Source of the DNA: a virus
Taxonomy: Duplodnaviria; Heunggongvirae; Uroviricota; Caudoviricetes
Strand: one strand, 5' to 3'
IMG/VR virus record: IMGVR_UViG_2602041568_000006
Coordinates: 1-14,285 of that record
DNA length: 14,285 nt
In this document: piece after piece, positions 1 through 14,285 of the stretch
How positions within the stretch are numbered: the first letter of the stretch is position 1
Layout: every line of letters begins with the position of its first letter
Made by a program: the position numbers and the translations under genes
The notes under the pieces: model-generated
What the model saw: the letters and a program-made list of their open reading frames with translations, nothing else
Database searches by the model: none
What the model was told of the DNA's origin: nothing

Positions 1-552
1 ACGGGCTGCACTTTCCGGTAAGGCATCCGCCAGGTCATTACGAACCAGCCACCAGCACAGTTCCGGCATTGTCACAACGTGACTGTCATCAAAACCGAGA
101 TCCCGACGCACAACAGACAATACCCAGCGGGCACAGTTATCCGTTGCCATTGATTCCAGCCGTTCCGTGAACTGATCGCGCAACTGGTTATCGCAGTGCC
201 AGCACAGACGGATTGCGCCCGGCGCGTGCCGCATTGTGGTCATGTTCTCGCTGTGCCAGTCGGAATGAGGCCACTGACAGCCCTTTTCACGAAGTAACCA
301 GCTTTCAAGACATTCCACGCCACCAGCACGACGGATCACTGCCTCATTGCGGAACACGCCCCGAACGGCAGGATCATCCGCCAGCGGTTGTGATACCGCC
401 GGAACGGCACCACTGGCAAAAGATGAATAACGTTCCGGCTCAGGCTCCAACAGGACACGCCCCTGCATAAACAGGGGCATCAGCTCTGAACCTGGCCTGA
501 ACAATACGATCCCCATACGCGGGGCAATTTCAGGAGTCAGTAGTGCTCTCAC
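1..552 (-). CDS. Partial conserved prophage protein, Cys/His-rich (CQWPH...CWHCDNQ motif), possibly DUF968/YdfU-like; 3' end outside window
   Basis: Hand translation of the minus strand from 480 to 1 gives an open frame of at least 160 codons (MPLFMQGRVLLEPEPERYSS...LCWHCDNQLRDQF...). It is absent from the ORF track because it runs off the window. Start is ambiguous: GTG at 552 with a GAGG SD, or ATG at 516 or 480. Family assignment is from memory only. Confidence 0.45.
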   Translation of the reverse strand, partial: MRALLTPEIAPRMGIVLFRPGSELMPLFMQGRVLLEPEPERYSSFASGAVPAVSQPLADDPAVRGVFRNEAVIRRAGGVECLESWLLREKGCQWPHSDWHSENMTTMRHAPGAIRLCWHCDNQLRDQFTERLESMATDNCARWVLSVVRRDLGFDDSHVVTMPELCWWLVRNDLADALPESAAR

Positions 553-559
553 GGTCACC

Positions 560-1369
560 TCAATGAACGGTATCGAGCAGCTTTAACAGCTCAGGGAATC
601 GGGATTCGAAGAAATGCGGCTGCGTCTCGCGCGGATTTGCGGGACTGGTGATGTTCTTGCCGAACATGCAGCCTTTCGCTGTCAGCGACCAGAATTTTTT
701 GATGTTGTTAATCGCAGTGCGGCTGTATCGTTCACGTTGTTCAACGATCCCCAGCTTCGCCATCTGGTGATATGCCTGATTAGCTGTCAGGCGGATACCA
801 TACTGCTTCAGCAGTGCACTCAATGATAGCGTGGGGCGGCTTGAGCCATCAGGCGCGTCAGCAGGAGCATCAATGGCATAGCGCGGTGCCAGATTCGGTA
901 AGCCAACAGCCTCCTGGAGTTTCTGACAGGCACCAAGCACTGAAGAGTTAGACAGGTTTAACTCCCGGCGCATAAAGTCCAGCAGGATCACGCCAGCCTG
1001 CATCTTGTCAGCAGCCTGTCCGGATAATTTTTCCGGTGCGCTGGTTACCATATCGAAAGTACGGATCACCTTCAGATGGAATGACGGGCTGATCCACATT
1101 GCATAGGCATACACCAGTTCCTTGCAGACATACGTTCCCCGTTCATTTCCCCCATGAATCACACTCACCGGGTCAACACCCAAATTCTGGGTGTTGGTCA
1201 ATTCATGAACAAGCTCAACAGTTTGTTGGCTGGAAAGAAACTTTCCCGGCTCCTTGGTTCTGGCATTTGCACCAGATGCTACTGCTGCGCGATGCAGATC
1301 GTTCAGGCTGTAACGCCCATAAGCATCACGACGAACTTCAATACCATCAATGACCATCAGATTATTCAT
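560..1369 (-). CDS. KilA-N domain protein (antirepressor/Roi-like phage DNA-binding protein)
   Basis: 269-aa ORF with ATG start at 1369 preceded by AAGAGGAGAAA. The N-terminal ~100 aa fit the KilA-N pattern (YSLNDLHRAA...GGNERGTYVCKELVYAYAMWISPSFHLKVI). Confidence 0.7.
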   Translation of the reverse strand: MNNLMVIDGIEVRRDAYGRYSLNDLHRAAVASGANARTKEPGKFLSSQQTVELVHELTNTQNLGVDPVSVIHGGNERGTYVCKELVYAYAMWISPSFHLKVIRTFDMVTSAPEKLSGQAADKMQAGVILLDFMRRELNLSNSSVLGACQKLQEAVGLPNLAPRYAIDAPADAPDGSSRPTLSLSALLKQYGIRLTANQAYHQMAKLGIVEQRERYSRTAINNIKKFWSLTAKGCMFGKNITSPANPRETQPHFFESRFPELLKLLDTVH

Positions 1370-1388
1370 ACTTCGTTTCTCCTCTTAA

Positions 1389-1778
1389 TCAGGCGGCTGC
1401 ACCCGCCGTTTTCTCGTACTTACTGATAGTGATCTCGACCTTCCCTTCCGGGATAACCGGTCCCCACTCCACCAGCATTCTTTTCACCTGACTGTCGTCT
1501 TCCCACACACCCGCGTGGGTCAGGGCGTCAAACAGTGCCTTGTTATAGTTGTCCAGATCGCGGATCCGGTTATCCGGAGGAAACAACACGATCTCCACTG
1601 AAGCAGGTGCCGACGTTGGTTTTGGCAGACGACGTAACTGCTCAACTATTGCTGCGCACGCCGCGCTCTGAAATTTTCGCCCCGCCGCGCTTATCAGGCT
1701 CTTACCAGAAAATGCCCCTTTGTTGGGGTGTCGCCAGTACGTGTTCACGCTGGGCGGAAAAGGCAAGATCAGCTTCAT
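1389..1778 (-). CDS. rusA: Holliday-junction resolvase RusA (crossover junction endodeoxyribonuclease)
   Basis: 129-aa ORF; the N-terminal LPFPPSVNTYW motif, size and acidic residues (DLDN) are typical of RusA. ATGA overlap with the upstream gene at 1775-1778. Confidence 0.8.
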   Translation of the reverse strand: MKLILPFPPSVNTYWRHPNKGAFSGKSLISAAGRKFQSAACAAIVEQLRRLPKPTSAPASVEIVLFPPDNRIRDLDNYNKALFDALTHAGVWEDDSQVKRMLVEWGPVIPEGKVEITISKYEKTAGAAA

Positions 1779-2101
1779 ACTTTCAGGCCCCTCTCATGTA
1801 ACCAGTGGGTTGCACGCAGCCTTGCGTTTTCCTCACCGGCAAGCAGTGCGCGGATAATCCCGACCGCCTCGCTGTCGTCGTCCTTCACCGCGGTATGAAG
1901 CGTTATCCCCCGGGCCACTCCACGCTTTATCGTGATGACGCCTTTTTTCTCCAGTGCGCGAAGATGCTCCACCGCTGCATTCACTGAACGGTATCCCAGC
2001 ATGGTTGCCACCTCCTGATTGGTTGGCGGAAAGCCACGCTCTTTCTGATAAGAAATCAGCATATCCAGCACCTGCTGCTGGCATTGAGTTAATGTCGTCA
2101 T
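1775..2101 (-). CDS. LexA-like winged-helix DNA-binding protein lacking the S24 peptidase domain
   Basis: 108-aa ORF. Residues 5-68 align by eye with the E. coli LexA N-terminal domain (QQQVLDMLISY...PPT..EVA..LGYRS.NAA.EHLRALEKKGVI.I..G.ARGI.L). No Ser/Lys peptidase domain follows. ATGA overlaps at both ends. Confidence 0.7.
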   Translation of the reverse strand: MTTLTQCQQQVLDMLISYQKERGFPPTNQEVATMLGYRSVNAAVEHLRALEKKGVITIKRGVARGITLHTAVKDDDSEAVGIIRALLAGEENARLRATHWLHERGLKV

Positions 2102-2751
2102 GCCGCCATCTCCCTGACCAGTTTTTCCGCCTGCTGGCGAACCTGCGCCAGAAACGCCTCACCACATGCCTCAAGTTCATCGCGCCCGATGTAGCTGATT
2201 GCCGGTCCCTTCCAGGTCTTGTCAAAAACAGCAATAGCACCAGCGAAAAAAGCTCCTGTCGGTACCTGCTTCTCGTCTTTCGGGATAAACCAGACAGGCA
2301 GTTCAAAACCAATACGCCCGCGAATAAAAGCAATATGATCTGCATCTTCCGGCCACCACACTTCGCTGGTGGCAGCTTTGATCAGGAAAACATAGCGCCC
2401 GCCCTTATCACGCATGGCACTGGCATGTTTCATGATGTAACGCATGCCGGTGATGTATTGCCCCTCATGCTGACTGGCGCGGCTGTATGGAGGATTACCA
2501 AAGGCAGCACCTTTAAGCTCCGCAAGGCGTTCTGACCAGTCATGCGCCAGCGCGTTGTCTTCCGCCGTGTAATACGCGGCACATTTGGCGTTATCACCGT
2601 CAGTGAACAGATCCAGAACAAACGGGCCAAACAGGGTGTTAATTCCCCAGAAAATGTTGTCCGGCGTGCGCCACTGATCACCCACTTCCTTCAGTTCATG
2701 GGCTGGTTTGTTCCGCAGTTCCACCAGCTCCTGGCAATATTTATTACTCAT
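2098..2751 (-). CDS. Phage DNA N6-adenine methyltransferase (Dam-type, orphan)
   Basis: NPPY catalytic motif (AAFGNPPYSRA), typical of phage N-6-adenine methyltransferases. Start placed at ATG 2751 (MSNKYCQ...), which overlaps the upstream stop as TAATG; the track's longer 2784 start would overlap the upstream gene. Confidence 0.75.
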   Translation of the reverse strand: MSNKYCQELVELRNKPAHELKEVGDQWRTPDNIFWGINTLFGPFVLDLFTDGDNAKCAAYYTAEDNALAHDWSERLAELKGAAFGNPPYSRASQHEGQYITGMRYIMKHASAMRDKGGRYVFLIKAATSEVWWPEDADHIAFIRGRIGFELPVWFIPKDEKQVPTGAFFAGAIAVFDKTWKGPAISYIGRDELEACGEAFLAQVRQQAEKLVREMAA

Positions 2752-3245
2752 TAAGCCCCCACGTAATTCCCTGACAGATACCACTCTTCACCCGATGCAG
2801 CGCGCTTGCTGCTTTTCCGTAAACACTGCTCACGACGCACCAGAAAATTGTTTCGTTCTGGCTGGGAGTGGCTTTCACGGAATGCCGCCATCCACACCGT
2901 TGCAGCACGACGGTATAGGCCCCTGGACTCCAGTTCTTCCGCCTGGCGGGTCAGGCACAAAATCACCCGGGGATCGTTAGTGCCGACATAGAAATTGCGC
3001 ACAGGTCTGGTTTCACGAACTGGTTGTGGCTCCGGCTCCTGCGCTCTCTCAGTCAGGCGTGGGAAATGTCTGCGTGTATCTCCTTCACAACGGTGAGCCA
3101 CACGCCCACTCTGACGTAACTTGCTTGCTGACTGCAGAACGCGCTGCCGTGAGTAACCTGCAAAAGCATCCGCAATGTCTCCGGAAGTACACCCCGGATG
3201 GGCTTCAATGAATTTCTGAACTTCATTCAAAAGACTCATGATCAC
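2751..3245 (-). CDS. yfdN: YfdN-like prophage protein with N-terminal winged-helix-like region
   Basis: 164-aa ORF, the same length I recall for K-12 CPS-53 YfdN, and it sits next to the methyltransferase and replication-like gene as yfdM/yfdN/yfdO do. The 3245 start is GTG; ATG at 3239 with a GGGGG SD 6 nt upstream is an alternative. Symbol is recalled, not verified. Confidence 0.5.
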   Translation of the reverse strand: MIMSLLNEVQKFIEAHPGCTSGDIADAFAGYSRQRVLQSASKLRQSGRVAHRCEGDTRRHFPRLTERAQEPEPQPVRETRPVRNFYVGTNDPRVILCLTRQAEELESRGLYRRAATVWMAAFRESHSQPERNNFLVRREQCLRKSSKRAASGEEWYLSGNYVGA

Positions 3246-4060
3246 CCCCTGAATCCTGCCGGGATCTGGCTGTAATCCACGTTGTCGTAACTGGCTTTGA
3301 AGTACGGGTCCTCGCGTCTGGCTGCAGATACCGCAGGAACTTCCCAGGATTCTTCGAAATGACGATCCGGACCAAAGAACGTGACAGCCTGTTTCACAAA
3401 TTGTGTGCCGCTGTTACCCATCGCAGATACCCAGCACGAGTAGCGTTTCACACCTTCCAGCATGGTTTCGGGGTTTACCCCCTCATTCAAACGGGCTTTC
3501 CAGGCTTTGAAGGCTGCTGATTTTGAATTGCCACCAGCACGTTTGGGGTATGCCAGCCATGCCTGCTCAAACTCCGGAGAGTATTCCGGTCGGTTTGAAC
3601 GAACTCGCACAGACTCATCAGCAGATGCACCAACAGCTATTGGTTCATTGACTGGTTCTTTGACTGGTTCAAAAGAGTGACTGGTTCTGGGTGAATCTCC
3701 TGCACTACCCCCTGGTGCAACTCCTGCACTACCTGGTGAATTTGCTGCACCAGATAGTGAATTATTTGCACTACCCCCTAGTGAATCTCCTGCACCATCA
3801 AGATGAAGAAGATAGATATTACTTGAGTTACCTTTTTCACCTTTCCGGGTGACTTTTTTTACCAGCCCGGACTCACAGAGGGCCGCAATATGATTCATCA
3901 CAGAACGTTTGCTAATCTCGCACTGGTCAGCAATATGCTGGTAGCTGGGCCAGCACTCACCCTGATCGCTGGCATTATCAGCCAGCTTGATCAGAACCAG
4001 TTTTCGCAATGGATTACCCACTCGAATTTTCATCGCTTTAACCATCAGCTCCATACTCAT
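3242..4060 (-). CDS. Phage replication initiator / replisome organiser-like protein (N-terminal HTH, repeat-rich linker, C-terminal AWLAYPKR domain)
   Basis: 272-aa ORF with GGAGG SD 6 nt upstream of ATG 4060. The N-terminus (NPLRKLVLIKLADNASDQGECWPSYQHIADQCEISKRSVMNHIAAL) is HTH-like, followed by a G/S/A/P low-complexity linker and a C-terminal EFEQAWLAYPKRAGGNSKSAAFKAWKARL motif typical of phage replication proteins. Corresponds in position to the O-like yfdO remnant. Confidence 0.6.
   Translation of the reverse strand: MSMELMVKAMKIRVGNPLRKLVLIKLADNASDQGECWPSYQHIADQCEISKRSVMNHIAALCESGLVKKVTRKGEKGNSSNIYLLHLDGAGDSLGGSANNSLSGAANSPGSAGVAPGGSAGDSPRTSHSFEPVKEPVNEPIAVGASADESVRVRSNRPEYSPEFEQAWLAYPKRAGGNSKSAAFKAWKARLNEGVNPETMLEGVKRYSCWVSAMGNSGTQFVKQAVTFFGPDRHFEESWEVPAVSAARREDPYFKASYDNVDYSQIPAGFRG
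3648..3795. repeat. Mosaic of short direct repeats inside the replication-protein gene, encoding the low-complexity linker
   Basis: GACTGGTTC occurs three times (3649, 3662, 3679); GTGAATCTCCTGCAC twice (3691, 3781); CTCCTGCACTACC twice (3697, 3721). Confidence 0.55.
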
Positions 4061-4281
4061 GCTGCACCTCCGAGATGCTTCATGTTTTTTCCGGAGCGAA
4101 AGGCTATAAGCGGCATACTGACGCGGTAATTACGGCCCAGCGGTTCACAAATCACCTTCTGACATTCACGGTCAACCAGGCTAACACGTAGAACATGCCC
4201 TGCAGGCGTGGTGTACCACTGACCCGGACGAGGACAACGGAAAGTCTGATTGGTAAAACGTTTGAAAATATTCCGGATCAT
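4057..4281 (-). CDS. Hypothetical 74-aa basic protein, translationally coupled within the replication operon
   Basis: ATGA overlaps with the upstream gene (4278-4281) and downstream gene (4057-4060). No family recognised. Confidence 0.45.
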   Translation of the reverse strand: MIRNIFKRFTNQTFRCPRPGQWYTTPAGHVLRVSLVDRECQKVICEPLGRNYRVSMPLIAFRSGKNMKHLGGAA

Positions 4282-5426
4282 TTGCGCCCCCTTACCTCTG
4301 AAGGGTTCAGCGACAAATTTATGAGGCAGGCCAGCGCCGAAGCATCATTAATATAGTCATATAAGCTAACAGCCAGCGGAGATTCGGCTTTTGCCAACAT
4401 AGGATAAAGCTGCTGCAGCCAGACCTGATGAATTGATGAAATGTAGGAACAGAGAACGCTGGCGTTATGTGCAACGTCGCTCGGTACAGCGGGCTTTGAA
4501 AGCTGTTTCTCCATCTGGTTAAAGGCATTGATGTATGCCTCTTTGAACTGGGCAGCACGTTTACCCGTGAAACCCATAGCAAGAAACGCAAAGCCGTCGC
4601 GGGTTATTTGATAGCAAGGTAGTTTGCGGCCTGATGCGTCGATGTACTCACTGAGCTGGAAATTCAGCTCAGTAAATTCGGCAGAGCATTCAAGAGACGC
4701 AATTTTTTGAATGACGTTTTTGTGTTGTTTGCCGAAATAACTAGCAACAGCCAGAGAAGAAGTAACAACTTTGTCTGCAATAATGCAAAGTTCAGGTTGA
4801 ACTAAGGCAGGGATCGTAGCCATGATGGCAGCCTCCGTATGCAATGGATAACTTCCACCACCGGAAACGCCAATTTCGCTGGTGGTGAACTGAGCAGGGT
4901 TGGCGTAACCGGCGCATACGGAAACCGGCGCACCTTTCGGTGCCCCCACCCAGCCCACCATAATTTGGGTATAGCTGAGTTGTAGCAACAAAAAAGACGC
5001 TAACGCGCCAATTGTCGCCGTATGCAATTCCAGGACGCCAATCCCGGCACCCGCTTTATAAGGTGCCTGAACAGTGTAACGTCCCGGAATGGCAGAATCA
5101 ATGTGCTGGTGGTCCTTCACACTCAACAAAATCACGCCTGAATTTCCACAAAGGACTAAAGCACTCATGCGGGTAGTCTTTGCGAAGATAGATAACGCGC
5201 TGTGTTTCTGGCTCCCAACGAATAACATGAACATAAAGTCCTCTTCCGTCACGAAACCAGCGGTTAAGTTCCTGCACAACTCGCCCCCCACAGTCAGGTA
5301 AAGTTCTCTGTGGTTACTTACAGCCAGGTGATTTGGTAATCTGCATTCATGCCGTAACAACAGGTGTGCAGCGACACTGACCACCAGCTGTTGCGACAAA
5401 CGGTTATTTGCCGTTAAACTGTTCAT
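4278..5426 (-). CDS. Rha-family phage regulatory protein; Rha domain begins at internal Met (ATG 4823, GGAGG SD) after an uncharacterised ~200-codon in-frame N-terminal extension
   Basis: Continuous 382-codon ORF. Residues 202-290 (MATIPALVQPELCIIADKVVTSSLAVASYFGKQHKNVIQKI...EFTELNFQ...RDGFAFLAMGFTGKRAAQFKEAYINAFNQME) match the Phage_pRha pattern. A strong GGAGG lies 8 nt upstream of the internal ATG at 4823. The N-terminal 200 aa are A/G/S/L/V/H-rich and poorly charged. The 5426 ATG overlaps the upstream stop as ATGA. Confidence 0.5.
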   Translation of the reverse strand: MNSLTANNRLSQQLVVSVAAHLLLRHECRLPNHLAVSNHRELYLTVGGELCRNLTAGFVTEEDFMFMLFVGSQKHSALSIFAKTTRMSALVLCGNSGVILLSVKDHQHIDSAIPGRYTVQAPYKAGAGIGVLELHTATIGALASFLLLQLSYTQIMVGWVGAPKGAPVSVCAGYANPAQFTTSEIGVSGGGSYPLHTEAAIMATIPALVQPELCIIADKVVTSSLAVASYFGKQHKNVIQKIASLECSAEFTELNFQLSEYIDASGRKLPCYQITRDGFAFLAMGFTGKRAAQFKEAYINAFNQMEKQLSKPAVPSDVAHNASVLCSYISSIHQVWLQQLYPMLAKAESPLAVSLYDYINDASALACLINLSLNPSEVRGRK

Positions 5427-6058
5427 GCGTTAGTTTCTCCACAGACACAAAACGCCACGACGCCCGGAGCTGCACACTCGCGGGCGTTACTCTTTTCCGG
5501 CGCACAAAAAACACGAAATAACAGTGTTAAATGCTCCTGCCACTTCGCCATTACTTGGTAGCTGTTCTCTTCGATTTGCTCACGCTCAGCTTGGTCAATA
5601 ACTCCATCAGCAGTTGCCTTGCGTAAGTACTGGGAATGCTTGCCAATCCATTCTATTGACTCCATCAGCCGCTGATTAATGTCACCATTGTCAATATCAT
5701 CAATGACCACCAGCGGCACAAACACCCCATTACTACGACGGGCTATTGCATCCGTTACATGCCTGGTACCACTGGCATCCTGTAAAACCATGGCCCACTC
5801 AAGTGGAAAAATTTGATCCCCACCGCTACGCAGTCTGTTATGCAATTGATCTTTTGCTGGGGTGATATCATCAGATTTATACAAACCAAGAATTTCTGCT
5901 GCTTCCTCATAGCCATGAGGTAAATCAGCAATCGTTCTTCGTATTGCTGCCACCAGCCATGCTGGTTGCTTATCAACTTTCCATTCAGGTTCTTTACCCA
6001 CGTTTAAGCCCTCATATCTGTGGTTTCTGTAAATCGATTTATCCATTAGATTTTTCAT
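5423..6058 (-). CDS. CII-like / YdaT-family early regulatory protein (position-based assignment)
   Basis: ORF immediately downstream of the Cro-like gene. The track start at 6115 is GTG; in-frame ATGs at 6058 (MKNLMDKS) and 6046 are more plausible and overlap the 3' end of cro. Function is inferred from position in the operon, not from motifs. Confidence 0.45.
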   Translation of the reverse strand: MKNLMDKSIYRNHRYEGLNVGKEPEWKVDKQPAWLVAAIRRTIADLPHGYEEAAEILGLYKSDDITPAKDQLHNRLRSGGDQIFPLEWAMVLQDASGTRHVTDAIARRSNGVFVPLVVIDDIDNGDINQRLMESIEWIGKHSQYLRKATADGVIDQAEREQIEENSYQVMAKWQEHLTLLFRVFCAPEKSNARECAAPGVVAFCVCGETNA

Positions 6059-6239
6059 AAAGCTCAGGTTTAAATGGCAACCGTCCGCAAGTTCTATATG
6101 CAGCCTCTGCTGCACGTCCTTTTGGAATTAACTGGCCAGGACGGTTTCGCCACTGATAAACGGCTTCAGTTGTTATGCCGAAAAAAGCAGCAACTTTCTC
6201 AATGCTGCCGAAGTAGCTTTCGATATCGTCAGTCGTCAT
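6039..6239 (-). CDS. Cro-like HTH repressor (YdaS/Cro family)
   Basis: 66-aa ORF divergent from the cI-like gene. Contains an HTH-like segment (IEKVAAFFGITTEAVYQWRNR) and has a GGAGG(G) SD just upstream of ATG 6239. Confidence 0.7.
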   Translation of the reverse strand: MTTDDIESYFGSIEKVAAFFGITTEAVYQWRNRPGQLIPKGRAAEAAYRTCGRLPFKPELYEKSNG

Positions 6240-6250
6240 ATGCCCTCCAA

Positions 6251-6315
6251 ACTAAGTTTTATTAGATGTTAATTATCAATCTATCTTAGGTCAATAAAAA
6301 CTAAGATTACTTAGT
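6251..6315. promoter_or_regulatory. OR-like tripartite operator between cro and cI: 16-bp sites of the ACTAAG-N4-CTTAGT family
   Basis: Sites at 6251-6266 (ACTAAGTTTTATTAGA), 6275-6290 (degenerate, ATCAATCTATCTTAGG) and 6300-6315 (ACTAAGATTACTTAGT, perfect 6-bp arms), spaced about 24-25 bp centre to centre as in lambda OR1-3. Confidence 0.45.
6266..6294 (-). promoter_or_regulatory. Candidate pR-like sigma70 promoter for cro (TTGACC-N17-TAACAT on the minus strand)
   Basis: -35 TTGACC at 6294-6289 and -10 TAACAT at 6271-6266 with a 17-bp spacer; overlapped by the operator half-sites. Confidence 0.35.
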
Positions 6316-6336
6316 AATTAAAGAAATGGTGCTCCT

Positions 6337-6963
6337 ATGGAAACGGTTGGTCAGCGTATAAAAGCTCTGAGAAGAGTTACCAGAACGTCCCAGAAAGAAT
6401 TGGGTAAATTTTGTGGAGTAAGTGACGTTGCTGTGGGGTACTGGGAGAAAGACATCAATGTCCCTGGTGGGGAAGCACTTTCAAAATTAGCGAAGTTCTT
6501 CAATACGTCAATAGATTACATTCTTTATGGTGCGGAGTTTGAAGGCAAACTCGTCACAAACATGCGCAGAGTTCCTGTAATCTCGTGGGTTCAGGCTGGG
6601 CAGTTTACTGAGTGCAGGACAGCAGAAGTGTTTAGTGAAGTAGACAAGTGGGTAGATACATCATTAAAGATTGGTGATAACTCATTTGCATTGGAGGTTA
6701 AAGGCGACTCCATGACTAACCCTAACGGCCTCCCAACAATACCAGAAGGCGCAACAGTGATTGTAGATCCTGATGCAGAACCCCGGCATGGAAAAATAGT
6801 CATCGCTAGACTTGATGGAACAAACGAAGCCACAGTAAAAAAATTAGTTATCGATGGCCCTCAAAAGTTTTTAGTGCCATTAAATCCCCGGTACCCCAAC
6901 ATCCCGATCAATGGTAATTGCCTCATCATTGGTGTAGTCAAAGGAGTTCAATACGAACTCTAG
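6337..6963 (+). CDS. CI-like prophage repressor (N-terminal XRE HTH, C-terminal S24 LexA-like autopeptidase domain)
   Basis: 208-aa ORF. N-terminal HTH (QRIKALRRVTRTSQKELGKFCGVSDVAVGYWEK) and C-terminal S24 motifs (GDSMTNP...; VKKL Lys). No obvious SD, suggesting a leaderless or poorly translated mRNA as for lambda cI. Confidence 0.85.
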   Translation: METVGQRIKALRRVTRTSQKELGKFCGVSDVAVGYWEKDINVPGGEALSKLAKFFNTSIDYILYGAEFEGKLVTNMRRVPVISWVQAGQFTECRTAEVFSEVDKWVDTSLKIGDNSFALEVKGDSMTNPNGLPTIPEGATVIVDPDAEPRHGKIVIARLDGTNEATVKKLVIDGPQKFLVPLNPRYPNIPINGNCLIIGVVKGVQYEL

Positions 6964-6991
6964 CCCCCCTTTTCTCTAACCAAAACACCGA

Positions 6992-7045
6992 ACTAAGAAA
7001 AGTTTGGTGTTTTCTCTTGCCATCAAAACTAAGTTAAGTTAGATT
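6992..7045 (+). promoter_or_regulatory. Operator-like sites downstream of cI (ACTAAGAAAAGTTTGG, ACTAAGTTAAGTTAGA) with a possible TTGCCA-N17-TAGATT promoter: candidate OL/pL
   Basis: Sites at 6992-7007 and 7028-7043 share the ACTAAG half-site with the OR sites. Possible -35 TTGCCA at 7017-7022 and -10 TAGATT at 7040-7045. Confidence 0.3.
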
Positions 7046-7117
7046 TTATATCAAAGATAACGAACAGGCAGGACGCCCACGAAGTAGCCGCCGGTGGCGG
7101 GATGATTCGTTAGCAAC

Positions 7118-7154
7118 AAAAAAGCGCCCTACAGGACGCTTTGCTCTTTAAAAA
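7118..7154. terminator. Hairpin with minus-strand U-tract (terminator for the 7308-7802 gene), abutting a boxA-like TGCTCTTTAAAAA on the plus strand
   Basis: Stem 7124-7129 / 7134-7139 with loop TACA. On the minus strand it forms 6 bp including one G-U and is followed by UUUUUU (complement of 7118-7123). On the plus strand the stem has a C-A mismatch and is followed by TTGCTCTTTAAAAA (7141-7154). Confidence 0.5.
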
Positions 7155-7307
7155 TCAGTAACCCTCACTTTGGGCCTGGACCTGGTGGCCTGGGACGAGG
7201 AGGAATATGAAAAGGCTCTATTGGTCGACTCATTATCCAATCCTATTATGTCTCATTTCTTCGGTTTCGGTGGTTTCGGCTTCGGAGGTACATGTCCGTG
7301 AACTGGA

Positions 7308-7802
7308 TTATGCTTGTTGGTCATCATTAATATCCGTTAGTTCATTCTCTAGAGGTAGATCTCCCGCACACCAAGCTATAAATTTTTCTTTGGTTGTTAA
7401 ATCGTACTTAGTTGGAACACCAGCAAAAATACAGGCCCGAATGAAAGCCGCTCGTTCAAGTGATTTCCATGGATTACTATCAGTATCTTGGATTTTTAAA
7501 TACCTAGCTTGCAACTGATCTTCAGGAAGGGTATCAGACTCAATCAGCAGTCTTTTGTAATGCCTCGCTTGCTCTTTAGACATTCCAGCCTCCTGGCCAA
7601 ACTGATAGACCAACTGAAGAACCGAAAGTACGGCAACAAACAAACCGAAAATAAATAAATTACTGTACGGGGCGAAAACTGAAAAACCGAGAACGATTAA
7701 CATCAACGTTATTAATTTATCAATGCGAGTTAACAACGTGTAATTCATCTTCTCCAATACATAAGAGTAGTGAACATAAAATTTATAATCGTCTCTGGTC
7801 AT
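7308..7802 (-). CDS. AT-rich membrane protein with an N-terminal two-helix hairpin and soluble acidic C-terminal domain; candidate superinfection-exclusion/abortive-infection moron
   Basis: 164-aa ORF with two predicted TM helices (LITLMLIVLGFSVFAPY, LFIFGLFVAVLSVLQLVYQF). AT-rich third codon positions, own orientation opposite to the flanking genes, and a downstream minus-strand terminator at 7118-7139. Overlaps the antisense plus ORF 7207-7518. Confidence 0.5.
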   Translation of the reverse strand: MTRDDYKFYVHYSYVLEKMNYTLLTRIDKLITLMLIVLGFSVFAPYSNLFIFGLFVAVLSVLQLVYQFGQEAGMSKEQARHYKRLLIESDTLPEDQLQARYLKIQDTDSNPWKSLERAAFIRACIFAGVPTKYDLTTKEKFIAWCAGDLPLENELTDINDDQQA

Positions 7803-7901
7803 ATTAGTCTCAGTTTTCCTTGGGTGGTTTTGGAGGAACTGGAGGCTTTTGTCTTAACGGCACATGCCTCTCCTCATACTTATCTACACATAGATCCATA
7901 T

Positions 7902-7958
7902 AAATCCTTATCGTTGTTGGGGAGGGTTACATAATAACCAAATCCTTGTTGTTGGGGA
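7902..7958. repeat. Direct repeat AAATCCTT(ATC)GTTGTTGGGGA, two copies about 38 bp apart, in the non-coding region upstream of the early-left genes
   Basis: Copies at 7902-7923 and 7940-7958, identical apart from a 3-nt insertion. Confidence 0.5.
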
Positions 7959-8185
7959 ATAACCAGGTCCACCTCGCCTGATGTGGCTAAAAGCAGGCAC
8001 ATAACAGCTAAGTATTTTCAACCAGAGAGAATCCTTAGCGTTGTGGTGAATGCGGCTCAGCGCACGCGGGTTAAGGTTGAGGCTGACAGTCGACCTTCTG
8101 TGGATACCCACCCGCCTGGTGTGCAACCTTCGCCAGGCACCGGGAGGCACCCGGCACCACAACTTTATGCTGTGTGTAGTCCTGG

Positions 8186-8231
8186 CGGTACCAGTTTGTA
8201 CCCTTGCTTCCGGCTGGTACCGTCCTTTTTA
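8186..8231 (+). terminator. Terminator-like hairpin (9-bp stem CGGTACCAG / CTGGTACCG, then TCCTTTTT) within the GC-rich leader upstream of the yfdP-like gene
   Basis: Perfect inverted repeat 8186-8194 / 8214-8222 with a 19-nt loop, followed by a T-run at 8225-8230. Other GC hairpins lie at 8074-8096 and 8140-8154. Confidence 0.35.
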
Positions 8232-8367
8232 CAAAACAGAGAAGAGCATCACCGGACGACGGGCTCATAACCCAATCCATCCGGGCGGCTGCCACCGCAG
8301 GTGTTCTTCTCTGTTTTGTGGAGAAACTAATCGGCCTTGCAGGGTCGATATGATGAGGAGCAGCAAA

Positions 8368-8730
8368 ATGGCTAGCGAACGCAGTACTGATGTGCAGGCA
8401 TTTATCGGGGAGCTGGACGGCGGCGTATTTGAAACCAAAATCGGCGCAGTTCTCAGTGAAGTCGCTTCCGGTGTGATGAACACGAAAACCAAAGGTAAGG
8501 TCTCACTCAACCTGGAAATCGAACCATTTGATGAGAACCGTGTGAAAATCAAACACAAACTCTCATATGTTCGCCCGACTAACCGTGGGAAAATTTCCGA
8601 AGAAGACACCACCGAAACGCCGATGTATGTCAATCGCGGTGGTCGCCTGACTATTCTGCAGGAAGACCAGGGACAATTACTGACTCTTGCCGGTGAGCCT
8701 GACGGAAAACTCCGCGCAGCAGGTCATTAA
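8368..8730 (+). CDS. yfdP: YfdP-like early-left prophage protein
   Basis: ATG at 8368 preceded by GAGGAG 7 nt upstream gives 120 aa, the length I recall for K-12 YfdP, and it is followed by the yfdQ/R/S-like genes in the same order. The upstream in-frame extension of the track ORF lies in a GC-rich structured region. Confidence 0.55.
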   Translation: MASERSTDVQAFIGELDGGVFETKIGAVLSEVASGVMNTKTKGKVSLNLEIEPFDENRVKIKHKLSYVRPTNRGKISEEDTTETPMYVNRGGRLTILQEDQGQLLTLAGEPDGKLRAAGH

Positions 8731-8795
8731 TATCGTTCTTAATTAACTGATTATTTATCTCATCACTGAATATCTTAATATAGTGAGGACTTATT

Positions 8796-9620
8796 ATGTC
8801 TCAGAACTTAGACGCAACCGCAATTAATCAAATCCATGCCCTTATTTCTGCTCAGGGTGTTAATGACATTATCAGTAAGATTGGTGCCGATGCTGTGGCA
8901 TTGCCTGAGAATTTCCGCATTCATGATCTGGAAAAATTTAATTTAAATCGCTTCCGTTTCCGTGGTGCACTTTCCACTGCCAGCATCGATGACTTTACCC
9001 GTTATTCTAAAGATCTTGCAGATGAAGGCACCCGCTGCTTTATCGATGCCGATAATATGCGAGCCGTCAGTGTGCTTAACCTGGGTACTATTGATGAACC
9101 AGGTCACGCAGATAACACCGCCACTCTCAAACTGAAAAAGACAGCACCGTTCTCTGCTCTGTTGTCTGTTAATGGCGAGCGTAACTCCCAGAAGTCACTG
9201 GCAGAATGGATTGAAGACTGGGCCGACTACCTTGTGGGCTTTGATGCTAATGGTGACGCCATTCAGGCAACCAAAGCGGCTGCGGCGATCCGTAAAATCA
9301 CAATTGAAGCGAACCAGACCGCTGATTTTGAAGACAATGACTTCAGCGGCAAACGCTCCCTGATGGAGTCTGTCGAAGCGAAGACCAAAGACATTATGCC
9401 AGTGGCATTTGAATTTAAATGCGTTCCGTTTGAAGGTCTGAAAGAACGTCCGTTTAAATTACGCCTCAGAATTATCACTGGCGATCGTCCTGTACTGGTT
9501 CTGCGCATTATTCAGCTGGAGGCGGTGCAGGAAGAAATGGCTAACGAATTTCGTGATCTGCTTGTTGAGAAATTCAAGGACAGCAAAGTAGAAACCTTTA
9601 TTGGTACTTTCACCGCCTGA
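8796..9620 (+). CDS. yfdQ: YfdQ-like protein (DUF2303-type prophage protein)
   Basis: 274-aa ORF with a GAGG SD 7 nt upstream of ATG 8796; length and position match my recollection of YfdQ in CPS-53. Confidence 0.6.
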
Positions 9621-9747
9621 TTTCATTACTGCAAATGCCCCTGCGGGGGCATTTATGGAAACGTAATTTACTCAATAATCGCCGGATGGTGAGGGATTCT
9701 TTTTACCAGAATTCAGCGCGGTGCAGCGCATATACGTGGAGAACAAA

Positions 9748-10284
9748 ATGTCATTTATCAAAACTTTTTCTGGGAAGCATTTTTATTATGACAGGATAAA
9801 TAAAGACGACATCGATATTAACGATATCGCGGTTTCCCTTTCAAATATCTGTCGCTTTGCCGGTCATCTTTCGCACTTCTACAGCGTCGCCCAACATGCG
9901 GTTCTTTGCAGCCAGCTGGTGCCGCAGGAATTTGCTTTTGAAGCGTTAATGCATGATGCAACAGAAGCGTATTGCCAGGACATTCCCGCACCACTGAAAC
10001 GCCTTCTTCCTGACTATAAACGGATGGAAGAAAAAATAGACGCCGTAATCCGTGAGAAATACGGGTTACCACCGGTTATGAGTACGCCCGTGAAATATGC
10101 CGATCTCATCATGCTGGCAACCGAACGCCGCGATCTCGGGCTTGATGATGGCTCTTTCTGGCCTGTACTGGAAGGTATCCCGGCAACAGAGATGTTCAAC
10201 GTGATTCCACTGGCACCAGGCCATGCCTACGGGATGTTTATGGAACGCTTTAACGAATTATCGGAGTTACGCAAATGCGCATGA
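9748..10284 (+). CDS. yfdR: HD-domain phosphohydrolase, YfdR-like 5'-deoxynucleotidase
   Basis: HD-domain motifs (SVAQHAV...ALMHDATEAY). ATG at 9748 with GGAG SD gives 178 aa, the length recalled for YfdR. The track start at 9721 is GTG. Confidence 0.7.
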   Translation: MSFIKTFSGKHFYYDRINKDDIDINDIAVSLSNICRFAGHLSHFYSVAQHAVLCSQLVPQEFAFEALMHDATEAYCQDIPAPLKRLLPDYKRMEEKIDAVIREKYGLPPVMSTPVKYADLIMLATERRDLGLDDGSFWPVLEGIPATEMFNVIPLAPGHAYGMFMERFNELSELRKCA

Positions 10285-10637
10285 ATGTTTTCGAAATGGA
10301 AGGATTTCTTCGCGGGAAATGTGTACCGCGAGATCTGAAAGTGAATGAAACGGATGCTGAATACCTGGTGCGTAAATTTGATGCGCTTGAAGCTAAATGT
10401 GCAGCACTGGAAAACAAAGTAATACCAGTGTCAGCTGAACTGCCGCCAGCGAATGAAAGTGTTCTGTTATTTGATGCTAATGGAGAAGGCTGGCTGATTG
10501 GCTGGCGTTCTCTCTGGTATACATGGGGGCAAAAAGAAACCGGAGAATGGCAGTGGACATTTCAGGTCGGGGACCTTGAAAACGTCAACATCACTCACTG
10601 GGCAGTAATGCCAAAAGCACCGGAGGCTGGAGCATAA
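10275..10637 (+). CDS. yfdS: YfdS-like protein
   Basis: 120-aa ORF overlapping the end of the HD-domain gene; TAATG overlap with the next gene. Length and order match my recollection of YfdS. Confidence 0.5.
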   Translation: MRMNVFEMEGFLRGKCVPRDLKVNETDAEYLVRKFDALEAKCAALENKVIPVSAELPPANESVLLFDANGEGWLIGWRSLWYTWGQKETGEWQWTFQVGDLENVNITHWAVMPKAPEAGA

Positions 10638-11446
10638 TGACCACATTTACCGATAAAGAACTGATTAAAGAAATCAAAGAACGAATCAGCAGCATGGACG
10701 TGCGAGACAATGTTGAGCGCCGTGCTTATGAAATTGCTCTGGCATCGCTGGAAGAGGATCCGGTGGCATGGCTGCATTCAGACAATGGCTTAGGTATTCC
10801 GGCAATAACCAGGAGTAAAAACATTGCTGACAGTTGGTTATCAAAGGGCTGGTATGTTCAGCCGCTATATATAGCTAAGCCAGTGCCGGTGGTGCCAGAT
10901 GCTCGTCCGTCTTTAAATAATGGCATAGTCGGTTTTGATGAAGGCTGGAACGCCTGCCGCGCTGCCATGCTCTATGGTGCCGTACCTGCAAGCCAGGCTT
11001 ACAAGTTGCCACAAACGCAGTTTAAACAGGTTGCTGACCTCTACGAAATGCAATTTGATGACGGTCGCACTTGTGCCTTTCACACTGATGCGCAAAAGGC
11101 TGTGCAATGGCTTCAGGCGTGCGACGGAAACAGGGTTCAGGAATACGTTAAGCTGGAACGATTGCAGAACGCACTGTCTGGCAACTCTCCGGTAACTCCG
11201 GATGGTTGGGTTATGGTGCCGAAGAGACTAACAGCCGAGAACGGCGCTAAGGGGGCGCTATCCGGTGAATTTTCAGAAACTACGTTTATAAGCTGCCTGG
11301 AATGCTTTGGCGATGATGATTGCGATACCTGTGACGGGAGCGGACGTATTGAAATTAAAGTGCCAGTCACGTGGTCGACCATAAAATCTATCTGGGATAA
11401 AGGTATCGAGTATTTTGCAGCAAAACCATCACAAGAGGTGAAGTGA
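10637..11446 (+). CDS. Hypothetical early-left protein with C-terminal DnaJ-type CxxCxGxG zinc-finger-like motif
   Basis: 269-aa ORF with the motif CLECFGDDDCDTCDGSG near the C-terminus. Translationally coupled at both ends. Possibly the full-length counterpart of the shorter K-12 yfdT. Confidence 0.55.
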   Translation: MTTFTDKELIKEIKERISSMDVRDNVERRAYEIALASLEEDPVAWLHSDNGLGIPAITRSKNIADSWLSKGWYVQPLYIAKPVPVVPDARPSLNNGIVGFDEGWNACRAAMLYGAVPASQAYKLPQTQFKQVADLYEMQFDDGRTCAFHTDAQKAVQWLQACDGNRVQEYVKLERLQNALSGNSPVTPDGWVMVPKRLTAENGAKGALSGEFSETTFISCLECFGDDDCDTCDGSGRIEIKVPVTWSTIKSIWDKGIEYFAAKPSQEVK

Positions 11447-12018
11447 TGAACAACTTAATGATCGACCTTGAGACGATGGGGAAAAATAAGGATGCACCGA
11501 TCGTTTCCATTGGCGCGGTGTTCTTCACTCCAGAAACCGGAGACATCGGACAAGAATTCTATACGGTTGTTAGCCTGGAAAGTGCTATGGGGCAAGGAGC
11601 TACACCTGACGGCGATACCATCCTGTGGTGGTTGAAACAAAGCCCTGAAGCACGAGCTGCAATCTGTATTGATGATACTTTGTCGATCAGCGATGCTCTC
11701 TCAGAACTAAATCATTTCATTAACCGGCACGCAGACAATACGAAATATTTAAAAGTCTGGGGTAACGGAGCCACCTTCGACAACGTAATTTTACGTGGAG
11801 CTTATGAGCGAGCAGGACAAATCTGCCCGTGGGCATACTGGAATGACCACGATGTACGCACGATCGTTACGCTTGGGCGTTCCATCGGATTCGACCCCAA
11901 AATGGACATGCCTTTCGATGGCGAACGGCACAACGCCCTGGCTGATGCCCGTCATCAGGCAAAATATGTTTCCGCTATCTGGCAGAAATTAATTCCTGCC
12001 ACCAGCACAGAATTATGA
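11446..12018 (+). CDS. DEDDh-family 3'-5' exonuclease (DnaQ-like fold)
   Basis: Exo I motif (MIDLETMG) and a C-terminal H-x4-D motif (HNALADARHQ). Start placed at ATG 11446 (AAGAGG SD 7 nt upstream), overlapping the upstream TGA; the track start at 11443 is GTG. Confidence 0.7.
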   Translation: MNNLMIDLETMGKNKDAPIVSIGAVFFTPETGDIGQEFYTVVSLESAMGQGATPDGDTILWWLKQSPEARAAICIDDTLSISDALSELNHFINRHADNTKYLKVWGNGATFDNVILRGAYERAGQICPWAYWNDHDVRTIVTLGRSIGFDPKMDMPFDGERHNALADARHQAKYVSAIWQKLIPATSTEL

Positions 12019-12054
12019 TTTTCCCGGGTGCAGCCGGTTTTGATGGAGAAAATT

Positions 12055-12336
12055 ATGAACACCTTGTTTTTACTGATGGCTGAATTCAATACCCCTAACA
12101 TTGAACTCTCAGCAGTTAGCCAAAAGTACTTTGGCATGAGTCCAGCCACGGCAGAAGCAAAAGCAAACGCTTGTAAGTTGCCCGTTCCAACATATCGCAT
12201 CGGCACATCACAAAAAGCAAAACGTTGCATCAATATTCAGGATCTTGCGGAATACATAGACAAAAGACGAGAAGAAGGACGTATCGAGTGGGAACAGGTC
12301 AGAACAAGCAAACAGAAGGGCAAAGAACATCACTAA
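12055..12336 (+). CDS. PrtN-family / excisionase-like small DNA-binding protein
   Basis: Start at ATG 12055 with a GGAG SD 6 nt upstream gives a 93-aa product (MNTLFLLMAEF...KLPVPTYRIGTSQKAKRCINIQDLAEYIDKRREEG) resembling the pyocin-activator PrtN / phage excisionase family. The track ORF begins at GTG 12028. Ends at the terminator. Confidence 0.55.
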   Translation: MNTLFLLMAEFNTPNIELSAVSQKYFGMSPATAEAKANACKLPVPTYRIGTSQKAKRCINIQDLAEYIDKRREEGRIEWEQVRTSKQKGKEHH

Positions 12337-12368
12337 ATAAAAAACCCGCCTAAAGGCGGGTTTTCAAA
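12336..12368. terminator. Bidirectional rho-independent terminator between the convergent early-left operon and the accessory cassette
   Basis: A-run 12336-12344, stem CCCGCC 12345-12350, loop TAAA, stem GGCGGG 12355-12360, then TTTT 12361-12364. The U-tract is stronger when read on the minus strand. Confidence 0.7.
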
Positions 12369-12383
12369 AAGCACCAGCTATGA

Positions 12384-12557
12384 TCATGCTGCTTTGCGAC
12401 GACGAAGCTTACCCTGCTGCTCTTTACCAGAGACAGTAGCGTGAGTGAACGCATTATGAGCAGCCTTCATCAGAACTTCAACAGCAGCACCCATACCTGC
12501 GAATGCTTTCATTGTGTCGAACTTAACCTGTGGCTTGGTTGCTTTTTGATCTTCCAT
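12384..12557 (-). CDS. Unlisted 57-aa ORF (MEDQKATKPQVKFDTMKAFAGMGAAVEVLMKAAHNAFTHATVSGKEQQGKLRRRKAA), third gene of the accessory operon
   Basis: Hand translation. ATG at 12557-12555 is preceded by AGGAG 6 nt upstream; TGA at 12386-12384 is followed directly by the terminator. Below the ORF-track length cutoff. Predicted helical with a basic C-terminal tail. Confidence 0.4.
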   Translation of the reverse strand: MEDQKATKPQVKFDTMKAFAGMGAAVEVLMKAAHNAFTHATVSGKEQQGKLRRRKAA

Positions 12558-12596
12558 AGAAAACTCCTGAAGTTATACCGAAACAATTCCTGTTGT

Positions 12597-13016
12597 TTAC
12601 TCATCATCAATAGATGATACGCAATATTTATTTTTAAATTTAAGGTTCTTTGGCGTAACTTCATCAGAGATATCAAAACCGTCCAGAATTCTATTGAATG
12701 TAGCTTCTGGCATATCATCATGAACAGAAATCTCACCCGATCGCTGCTTTCTAACCATGTTATCCACTCGCCAAATTATAGCTTCAGCGTAAACAACATA
12801 ACTTGGATGCTTGATAAAGCGATGATCACCAGAATTCAAGATGCAAGACGGATCGTGGGGGACACCATCCTTGATACTAGAAATATTAACAACTAAAACA
12901 CAATAACAATCGTTAACGGGGTAATAAACAGGATCATTACAAATCACATGAAGATGATTGCATGGCCCAGTTGGGGCAAGCACAGTTCCTTTCCTGTATG
13001 GCTGATAATCCGTCAT
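12597..13016 (-). CDS. 139-aa Cys/His-rich protein of unrecognised family, translationally coupled to the Panacea-like gene; candidate toxin/effector
   Basis: ATGA overlap with the upstream gene at 13013-13016, AT-rich codon usage, and no motif I recognise (GPCNHLHVICNDPVYYPVNDCYC...). The toxin role is inferred only from gene order (socAB-like). Confidence 0.5.
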   Translation of the reverse strand: MTDYQPYRKGTVLAPTGPCNHLHVICNDPVYYPVNDCYCVLVVNISSIKDGVPHDPSCILNSGDHRFIKHPSYVVYAEAIIWRVDNMVRKQRSGEISVHDDMPEATFNRILDGFDISDEVTPKNLKFKNKYCVSSIDDE

Positions 13017-13585
13017 GATAATTGCAAAGAAAATTCCTTAAGTTTCTGAGATTCTTCCATTTTGCCAATTATGCGATTAGCCTCATCCTCGCTTTTACCC
13101 TCACTGATCAGCATTTCTTTCAGGTCTATAGGCTTACGAGAATTGCCAGGATCGTGCCACTCTGGACAAACGCTTTCTAAATGCGTCATATTTGCGAGAT
13201 CAAATCGGTTCATATGCCCATACCGAGAATAGATTTCATCTAAAATCCGGATATCTGCACGACTCAATTCATCAAAGACCTCGTCTGCATCCATTTCCCT
13301 CGGATCTGAACGCAACGATACATTATGCCCGTTCGTCTCTATCAAGTTGTACCAGTAGTCACCAATGCCTTCAGCCTTACCGCGAATCAAGTTCAGCGTA
13401 TTCGACATGACTGGTCCAAATTTCATAGAGTAAAGGCTATCTTCGCCGATCATCCTGCCATGCTTCAAAATCGACTGGCGGTTAGACAGATAGAGCAACT
13501 TCATCAATTTCAGATATGCCATGCGCCCACCTCGCTTAAGAAGTAGGTATGCAGCCATTTGAGCTACTTTTTCTTCGCAAAACAT
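13013..13585 (-). CDS. Panacea-domain (DUF4065, SocA/GepA-like) protein; candidate antitoxin
   Basis: 190-aa ORF with GAGG SD 9 nt upstream of ATG 13585. Matches the Panacea pattern as I recall it (AAYLLLKRGG...LKLMKLLYLSNRQSILKHGRMIGEDSLYSMKFGPVMSNTL) and has the C-terminal THLESVCPEW-type motif. Confidence 0.6.
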   Translation of the reverse strand: MFCEEKVAQMAAYLLLKRGGRMAYLKLMKLLYLSNRQSILKHGRMIGEDSLYSMKFGPVMSNTLNLIRGKAEGIGDYWYNLIETNGHNVSLRSDPREMDADEVFDELSRADIRILDEIYSRYGHMNRFDLANMTHLESVCPEWHDPGNSRKPIDLKEMLISEGKSEDEANRIIGKMEESQKLKEFSLQLS

Positions 13586-14285
13586 ATAAGAAACCTCAAA
13601 GATAGTGAACTTTATAATTATTCTCGATACTTCATGGGTTGCTTCATCACCAACACGAGCTTCTTATGGTGTGCCCACTTGGGCCTAAGCAACCAGTTAC
13701 CTCGTTTGTCAAGTTTATAGCTGGCTTTAACCATGGTCAATTGAAGTGATGAGCAAATGATGCTTTCTAAGAATAACAGGTTCCCAATAGGCTCCCACAA
13801 AGTGTATAACTAGTTGTTTTTCAAAAACGGTACATCCTATCGAGCATTGGTGCAACGCTAAACCGACCACTCCAGTGAACGTCAGTTTTTTCAGGCATTG
13901 CGCTGGTTTGGTTGATTTTTTGCATTTCAGAATTACCGTGCATTTTCAAATGTAGAGATTATTTTATCGATATATCATGGGGTTATGTTATTCAGCATCA
14001 CTATTCAGGAGGCTCAATAGCGGGGTACTATACCATAACAACAGGAAGCGCCTGTCTCATTGCAAAAGAAAATTGAGATCCTCTCAAGGCATGAAGCTCT
14101 CACGAAGTGATGGAAATAATCTTATTAGCCGTTAACTTTGTTAAGGCCAATGATAAACAATCCAGGTTCGACGATAAATAAAAAATCACACATTAAACTC
14201 TGGTGATATATCTCCCTGCTAATAGCATTGATAGAGAAAAAAGGGTAATGACTCCAACTTATTGATAGTGTTTTATGTTCAGATA

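Follow-up and report, generated by a model that had tools for sequence, protein, structure and literature searches.

A putative P4 eta/kil-type nested gene pair over an isrK-C4 RNA cassette at the Rha locus of a lambdoid Escherichia coli prophage

Described C4 systems and the Rha locus

The immunity region of the satellite P4 comprises seqA, cI, which specifies the CI RNA, and seqC (Barquist et al. 2013, PMC3632133). In the summary of Forti et al. (1999) given in PMC10111431, P4 has an internal constitutive promoter and Kil corresponds to a shortened Eta; full-length Eta arises only on transcripts of the upstream promoter, by translation that is coupled to an alpA homologue and prevents termination. 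Phages P1 and P7 carry a c4 antisense RNA, icd and ant (Citron and Schuster 1990, as cited in PMC7313666). Pairs of isrK and C4 are known from lambdoid prophages and from the APSE phages, so that C4/CI, isrK/SeqA, eta/kil and isrK-orf45-anrP are all known parts (PMC3632133, PMC7313666, PMC4825925, PMC10111431). Here we analyze a stretch of viral DNA of 14,285 nucleotides (IMG/VR record IMGVR_UViG_2602041568_000006, positions 1 to 14,285; called the window below). Its host element is a lambdoid (SfV/e14-like) prophage of Escherichia coli, and in the early-right operon an isrK-C4 cassette lies inside a long open reading frame (ORF) that ends in a Rha domain.

The long ORF has an ATG start, encodes 382 aa and occupies 4278..5426 on the minus strand, which also carries the other features of the locus. 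RefSeq/GenBank records of identical or related DNA list it as one 'Rha family protein', and it is the equivalent of P4 eta. In the order of reading it contains a DUF4222 gene, a promoter-like site, isrK, C4, a leader and finally rha, and the frame is one throughout. A second ATG at 4823 lies in the same frame as ATG 5426 and both have the stop at 4278 in common, that is, two genes are nested. We suggest, with a probability of roughly 0.6, that the locus is a nested pair of the P4 eta/kil type, with products of 382 aa and 181 aa, and that the extension of the longer product would be a translated pass-through over an immunity-RNA cassette. This proposal is built on sequence features and on the analogy with P4.

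The P4 arrangement agrees with the window in several respects. The Rfam matches to isrK (SeqA) and C4 (CI) fall inside a single long ORF (8767..8168), the ATG of which shares bases with the ORF88 stop (GCATGATGATG). The same GCATGA arrangement is found in P4-like loci and in the window. The Pfam family Phage_ASH matches the same frame, a promoter-like site stands just upstream of isrK, and kil (65 aa) starts inside the ORF. The short product is made from an internal ribosome-binding site (RBS), AGGAGGCTGCCATCATGGCTAC, that is the antisense target; this RBS/start region is identical in P4 and the window over 23 consecutive nt (AGGAGGCTGCCATCATGGCTAC plus one base). There are also differences. 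P4 is a satellite whereas the window holds the early-right operon of a lambdoid prophage; the upstream partner is AlpA-like in P4 and the CII-like ymfL here; and the short product is a Kil/Icd-like protein of 65 aa instead of a 181-aa Rha protein. The spacer between isrK and C4 measures 107 nt in P4 and 24 nt in the window, the a'/b' specificities are others (the a', a1 and a2 set of P4 matches among itself), and the long ORF of the window runs, in addition, over a DUF4222 gene that is read in a different frame.

The immI region of P1 and P7 resembles the window in its C4 RNA, whose a'/b' elements pair with a2/b2 where the first gene downstream has its RBS, in the a1/b1 copies upstream, in the antirepressor type of the regulated cargo and in the existence of specificity alleles (RF01695, RF03163). 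The immI of P1 forms an operon of its own, in which control runs via icd to ant by coupling. In the window, in contrast, it is the Shine-Dalgarno sequence (SD) of rha that serves as the b2 target, and a longer ORF encloses the cassette. Prophage Gifsy-1 likewise has a promoter, isrK with a terminator, a C4-like RNA (STnc1160) and an antirepressor-type gene (Hershko-Shalev et al. 2016, PMC4825925). The AUG of its orf45 aligns with AUG 4961 of the window (nt 107 versus nt 106), the nucleotides being conserved and the peptide not. Gifsy-1 differs in that a stop precedes orf45 by two codons and the stop codon of orf45 itself overlaps with the ATG of anrP (ATGA), which leaves no long nested ORF; moreover, its locus follows antQ instead of lying in an early-right operon and its cargo is of the P22_AR_N type. 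The APSE phages of Hamiltonella have annotated C4 and isrK by BRO and Rha genes, with C4 a'/b' matching a region upstream of the adjacent antirepressor-type gene and Rha-family genes nearby; the reported target, however, is a BRO-N gene and a nested long ORF is not described there (PMC7313666). A cassette of this design between a CII-like ymfL and the replication genes of an SfV/e14-like E. coli prophage, a Rha protein as the short product and the overlap with DUF4222 are not described in PMC3632133, PMC7313666, PMC4825925 or the P4 summary of PMC10111431.

RNA genes, target sites and the internal start of rha

Both RNA genes were found by Rfam at its curated thresholds on the strand of the long ORF. 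The isrK / P4 SeqA-type RNA covers 4990..5066 (RF01394, 61.2 bits, gathering score 50) and ends in an intrinsic terminator with a stem at 5009..4996 and a run of six U at 4995..4990, which the terminator scan also found. The C4 / P4 CI-type antisense RNA covers 4878..4965 (RF01695, 80.7 bits, gathering score 45) and matches the model over its full length (1-87). In isrK we recognize the decoy sites a1 (UUGGCGU, 5041..5035) and b1 (UGCAUACGG, 5026..5018); the match of the c4-a1b1 model RF03163 at isrK is below threshold (21.4 bits versus 46.7). C4 itself presents the b' sequence UUUCCGUAUGCG in the loop of its second hairpin (4924..4913) and the a' segment ACGCCAA at 4906..4900. The target site a2 (UUGGCGU, 4867..4873) is complementary to a' (7 bp, as for a1; duplex with a2 -10.3 kcal/mol). 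The target site b2 (UGCAUACGGAGG, 4832..4843) is complementary to the b' loop and includes the SD of rha, GGAGG at 4836..4832. The duplex of b' and b2 has 11 bp including GGAGG (-16.7 kcal/mol), that of b' and b1 8-9 bp.

Among 24 diverse homologues the C4 outer stem and the two internal hairpins show double-sided compensatory changes at 14 of 24 predicted pairs; the stem of hairpin 2 was preset by the search pattern and is hence uninformative for covariation. The read-through RNA 5066..4810 folds better than its shuffles (z = -5.1), the SD region being paired with C4 in cis. By analogy with the described systems C4 would be processed from a longer leader and would repress in trans.

The initial annotation, made from the sequence alone, had pointed out that the Rha domain sits late in the ORF, directly after an internal GGAGG-N8-ATG at residue 202, and Pfam, TIGR02681 and the sequence bear this out. 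Phage_pRha matches aa 222-307 of the long ORF (E = 1.7e-32) and aa 21-106 of the short form (E = 5.2e-33), TIGR02681 agrees with residues 218-311 of the long ORF, and the scores of 112-118 bits for PF09669 and TIGR02681 exceed the cut-offs of 29.9 and 45.95. The in-frame ATG at 4823..4821 is separated from GGAGG by 8 nt and opens a Rha-family regulatory protein of 181 aa (4278..4823) with the domain at its N-terminus by Pfam and TIGRFAM. Since the domain takes its usual N-terminal place in the 181-aa form and the C4 target site covers the SD, ATG 4823 is the start of Rha that C4 would control. Judged by sequence, this short product is the positional equivalent of P4 kil and of P1 icd/ant. We consider it as good as certain that the RNA cassette and the 4823 start are real.

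The sequence upstream of this start is of a different nature. As had been described at the outset, some 600 bp stay open in frame and encode a charge-poor sequence rich in A, G, S, L, V and H: these six residues account for 55% of residues 1-201 and D, E, K and R for 11%, compared with 44% and 17% in the Rha part. The unusual composition is that of translated structured RNA genes and of an alternative frame of another gene. The extension (603 nt, 5426..4824) is not a protein domain and its amino-acid sequence is unconstrained; no NCBIfam model matches it. An open frame of 201 codons arose in 115 of 200,000 first-order Markov random sequences of matched composition (about 6e-4 per frame). The open frame is thus rarer than expected by chance and not a trivial chance event. 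G+C content by codon position was tried as a coding signal and rejected: the long-frame pattern in aa 1-116 mirrors the DUF4222 frame and is uninformative for the rest.

The other gene in question encodes a DUF4222 protein of 59 aa from a GTG start at 5098..5277, in a frame other than that of the long ORF (PF13973, E = 9.5e-14, 51.1 bits, cut-off 27), and PGAP annotates it in close relatives. In relatives of 84% identity 17 of 24 variable columns fall on the third codon position of DUF4222, which is position 2 of the long frame, and in the larger set of 58 unique relatives 21 of 36 do so. Therefore DUF4222 is the frame under protein-level selection in that stretch.

Directly upstream of isrK there is a putative internal promoter of the sigma-70 type at 5073..5101, with -35 TTGATT (5101..5096), a 17-nt spacer, -10 TACACT (5078..5073) and +1 at G5066. 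It was read from the sequence; with 8 of 12 consensus matches it is below the threshold of the sigma-70 scan and unreported there. The putative promoter is kept in the 84%-identity relatives, and it is placed in agreement with the isrK transcription start of Gifsy-1, a start that coincides with that of the Rfam isrK match (PMC4825925). A perfect small hairpin, AACGG-CAAATAA-CCGTT, is seen further upstream at 5415..5399, 8 nt past the ymfL stop and within the first codons of the long ORF; it too is conserved in the 84%-identity relatives.

Pfam reports one more match in the long ORF, Phage_ASH (PF10554), at aa 117-212 (window 5078..4791; 64.1 bits, cut-off 26). The matched stretch is made up of isrK, C4, the leader and the first 11 codons of rha. 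Phage_ASH also matches P4 (8521..8330) over the C4 region, at an obsolete 'cI gene product' coding sequence (CDS) that is still in the P4 RefSeq record. As the profile falls on the RNA genes both in the window and in P4, Pfam Ash and the PGAP 'ash family protein' model an Eta-type leader frame over RNA genes and not a folded domain. Public records show a single 382-aa 'Rha family protein' or, in relatives, an 'ash family protein', and the equivalent SfV CDS is named 'transcriptional regulator'. RNA genes are annotated at the locus in none of the records examined.

Openness of the long frame and competing explanations

The initial annotation had proposed a comparison with relatives for a stop codon or an indel. 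Using the ATGA motif as anchor, whose presence is therefore by construction, we extracted 70 sequences, 58 of them unique. The stretch from ymfL to the rha start is open in 57 of the 58, with a length of 606 or 600 nt, and the single indel among the open sequences is one of 6 nt. The lone broken frame (L078) has a 1-nt deletion (605 nt) and 9 in-frame stops, and could stem from a decaying prophage or from a sequencing error. Polymorphic stop triplets do not occur in the long frame, versus 12 in each of the other two (0/24). The probability of such a distribution ranges, according to the mutation model, from 2e-4 to 1.3e-2; of the substitutions that create stops, a share of 0.30 falls in the long frame if all changes are counted and 0.17 if only transitions are. 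Variable columns are distributed over the three codon positions of the long frame as 13/17/19 and 29/31/25 outside DUF4222 and as 8/21/7 in the DUF4222 stretch.

A second comparison covers 54 unique loci that agree in C4-to-start spacing and differ in their isrK spacers and in what lies upstream. The stretch from isrK +1 to the ATG of the gene has 2 distinct stop events in frame versus 22 and 15 in the other frames, the two in-frame ones belonging to a single divergent locus. In-frame stops are not depleted in these 54 loci upstream of isrK (18, 27, 22). The in-frame ORF begins before the internal promoter in the majority of the contexts examined, and in several cases its start forms an ATGA with the stop of the gene before it. 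Taken at sequence level, the openness of the frame looks selected while the peptide is unconstrained. Among the readings first put forward, two isoforms by internal initiation is the one favoured, namely by the homology to P4 eta/kil, by the 57 open frames and by the lack of in-frame polymorphic stop triplets. Our own first conclusion, that the ORF is a pure annotation artefact and Pfam Ash a spurious translation of RNA, was revised on the stop-triplet counts and the P4 eta/kil precedent.

The upstream gene ymfL (5423..5974, a CII/CP76-like regulator; Pfam Phage_CP76, and annotated as ymfL by PGAP in identical DNA) ends in CGCATGA, so that the ATG of the long ORF lies on the ymfL stop (ATGA, 5423..5426) in the geometry of translational coupling. 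GGAG at 5440..5437 precedes this ATG by 10 nt, and the ATG itself is 360 nt upstream of isrK +1. These features suggest that ymfL and the long ORF may be translationally coupled.

We suggest that the locus could operate in the following way. In the lysogen, the internal promoter would give rise to terminated IsrK and to some read-through RNA from which C4 would be processed. C4 would then cover the SD of rha, with premature termination by analogy with P4 and P1, and Rha and the downstream replication genes would be off. Upon derepression the upstream early promoter would fire, and ribosomes leaving ymfL could re-initiate at the overlapping ATG 5426. They would cross DUF4222, which is read in another frame, isrK, C4 and the leader, and would enter rha in frame. 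As in P4, translation of the long frame would prevent termination. It would be the act of translation and not the peptide that blocks the terminator and the antisense action, so that early transcripts might become insensitive to immunity and the 382-aa form would be made. If C4 were titrated, for example by IsrK or by the a1/b1 copies in cis, the 181-aa form could be made from the internal SD.

Several points weigh against this proposal. Over the DUF4222 stretch translation would have to proceed in two frames, and ribosomes would have to pass an intrinsic terminator and a very stable structure (-118.6 kcal/mol). The statistics of stop avoidance are moderate and depend on the null model: segment 5426..5278 alone gives a count of only 0 versus 8. 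When the 56 substitutions that separate the two subtypes (84% identity) are placed at random, the frame survives in 22.5% of cases, so that its openness in both subtypes is not significant when taken by itself. Because the sequences are related to one another and exchange modules by recombination, the events counted are not fully independent. Divergent modules have broken frames and modules of the Gifsy-1 type work without the long ORF. Finally, that Rha would be an antirepressor-type regulator is deduced from its position only.

A possible, though in our view rather unlikely, explanation is that the extension is an untranslated leader. The products would be only DUF4222, IsrK, C4 and the 181-aa Rha, and the 382-aa ORF would be an artefact that owes its openness to the conserved, G+C-rich RNA cassette and to chance. 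The RNA genes, the terminator and the promoter-like site do lie inside the extension, and the third-position bias that is present in the DUF4222 frame is missing from the long frame. PGAP annotates shorter alternatives in close relatives, which goes along with the weak subtype comparison and with the Gifsy-1 and divergent modules just mentioned. An untranslated leader does not, however, account for 0 of 24 polymorphic stop triplets in frame, nor for 2 stop events versus 22 and 15 between isrK and the gene start, a depletion that holds across diverged alleles including hypervariable spacers. Nor does it explain why the only indel among the open sequences has 6 nt, why the same ATGA coupling to the preceding gene appears in two contexts that are unrelated, and why a 201-codon frame with a prior probability of about 6e-4 is open. 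In addition, the homologous long ORF of P4 is, by the summary in PMC10111431, translated and functional. The initial annotation had offered non-coding DNA that is open by chance as one of its readings; of this, the unconstrained amino acids and the RNA-encoding nature of the region stand, and the element of chance conflicts with an openness that looks selected.

We regard it as improbable that translation starts at the AUG within C4 (4961..4959) on transcripts from the internal promoter, which would yield a Rha isoform of 227 aa instead of or besides the 382-aa form, there being no stop here. This AUG is conserved, in frame with rha and the positional homologue of the orf45 start of Gifsy-1, with whose first AUG it aligns, and anrP expression requires orf45, which is translated (PMC4825925). 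Of the 69 unique loci that have the AUG, 56 carry it in frame with the gene start. Yet no SD precedes AUG 4961, the AUG belongs to the C4 outer stem, and the strong SD and the C4 target site sit at the 4823 start; stop avoidance that reaches upstream of the AUG through isrK (0 versus 14 and 8) would be left unexplained.

A genuine two-domain protein with a functional N-terminal domain before Rha, or an upstream protein gene without its former stop, is very improbable: the Phage_ASH match and the single protein of the RefSeq/GenBank records speak for it, but that match coincides with isrK, C4 and the leader and recurs on the obsolete P4 'cI protein' CDS, where the immunity factor is described as RNA, substitutions are even over the codon positions, compensatory RNA changes lead to radical amino-acid changes, the same extension precedes unrelated cargo proteins, and the sole protein-like constraint upstream belongs to DUF4222 in another frame with its own stop, which leaves the initially considered loss of a stop without support.

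Cargo exchange, operon context and significance

A pattern scan of viral contigs gave 119 C4 loci, 79 of them unique, which carry 24 different b' loop sequences. Some 50 nt downstream of the loop, most alleles have a matching b2 that overlaps with the SD of the following gene, and a matching b1 lies in the isrK upstream. Across the 24 alleles b' pairs with its own b2 over 9.9 bp on average versus 6.0 bp with the targets of other loci, and with its own b1 over 7.7 bp versus 5.7 bp (permutation p <= 1e-4 in both cases). The gene after the cassette encodes cargo of the antirepressor type, namely Rha, P22_AR_N, Bro-N, AntA or a protein of 64-65 aa that resembles P4 Kil/Icd in its (N-terminal) sequence; for several other small cargo proteins there is no Pfam match. 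A megablast search with a Gifsy-like locus (L016) against the phage collection gave no match.

The first residues MAT(I/V)P and an identical RBS are often common to rha, to unrelated cargo genes and to P4 kil. Unrelated cargo proteins thus have the SD, the spacer and these residues in common (window 4843..4809; L002-L122; P4 8381..8350), which places the recombination junction between cassette and cargo a few codons inside the gene. Moreover, the same b' allele stands before different cargo: UUUCCGUAUGCG, for example, is followed by Rha of 181 aa, by a 77-aa protein, by a Rha-like protein of 120 aa and by an 81-aa protein (L004-L122). This sharing of alleles suggests modular exchange and possibly cross-immunity between elements. 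In four loci (L005, L014, L026 and L107) the C4-to-start spacing is 105 instead of 106, the SD-ATG spacer is 1 nt shorter and the leader frame is out of the cargo frame. Their leader frame is open over 167-321 codons, across the small cargo gene that is read in another frame. Leader-frame openness, rather than an in-frame fusion, may be the conserved feature.

We put forward, tentatively and as an idea that may well prove wrong, that the pass-through frame is sequence-agnostic, with only its openness selected, and that ribosomes from ymfL would thereby take early-operon transcription past the embedded terminator and antisense cassette. The b1/b'/b2 alleles, at least 24 in number, would then be common to lambdoid prophages and P4-like satellites and would stand before interchangeable cargo, some of it of the antirepressor type.

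Downstream of rha follows a gene for 74 aa (4057..4281), whose ATG overlaps the rha stop (ATGA), and then a replication gene with similarity to HTH_36/DnaD (4060..3242), which has the same start/stop overlap with the 74-aa ORF. Such overlaps (ATGA or GTGA) at 5426, 4281, 4060 and 3245 chain ymfL, the long Rha ORF, the 74-aa ORF, the replication gene and a PerC-like gene, and a Dam methylase gene comes after the PerC-like gene with a longer overlap. The early operon is thus tightly coupled. As all neighbouring genes overlap, an untranslated gap of 600 nt with a terminator would be the lone break in this chain.

The window is a mosaic. Its repressor/cro region (6325..7017) resembles the ymfK/ymfT (e14-like) type of L002, and 801 nt around the extension of the long ORF are 99.8% identical to L001, whose repressor is of a different (XRE) type. 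Between the S24 repressor gene and the DUF2303 gene (6964..8795), typically a position for a moron or exclusion gene, lie an ORF of 164 aa with hydrophobic segments (7802..7308, minus strand) and one of 226 aa (8050..8730), both without a Pfam match. Further away we find a gene for an antitoxin with a SocA/Panacea domain (13585..13013, minus strand) followed by a 139-aa ORF (13016..12597); the two appear as the PanA/PanT toxin-antitoxin pair in the annotation of phage PhiR47_1. A tRNA scan of the window found none.

The locus is very common in E. coli prophages: the 801-nt query had at least a partial match in 2,984 of 5,426 complete genomes, and in 634 of these the match extended over 80% or more of the query. 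For this locus the functional reading is corrected from a single Rha protein to a compact regulatory device that combines a pair of immunity RNAs with a putative promoter, a terminator, a small gene in an overlapping frame and, as proposed here, nested products of two lengths. No new class of mechanism is opened. Instead, the logic of P4 eta/kil, where an RNA immunity cassette is switched to anti-termination by translation across it, would be extended to lambdoid prophages that carry Rha, and the long frame is a concrete case of an ORF that is apparently selected for openness and not for sequence. If both the pass-through and the shared-allele reading are true, helpers and satellites would be connected by an RNA-based network of cross-immunity.

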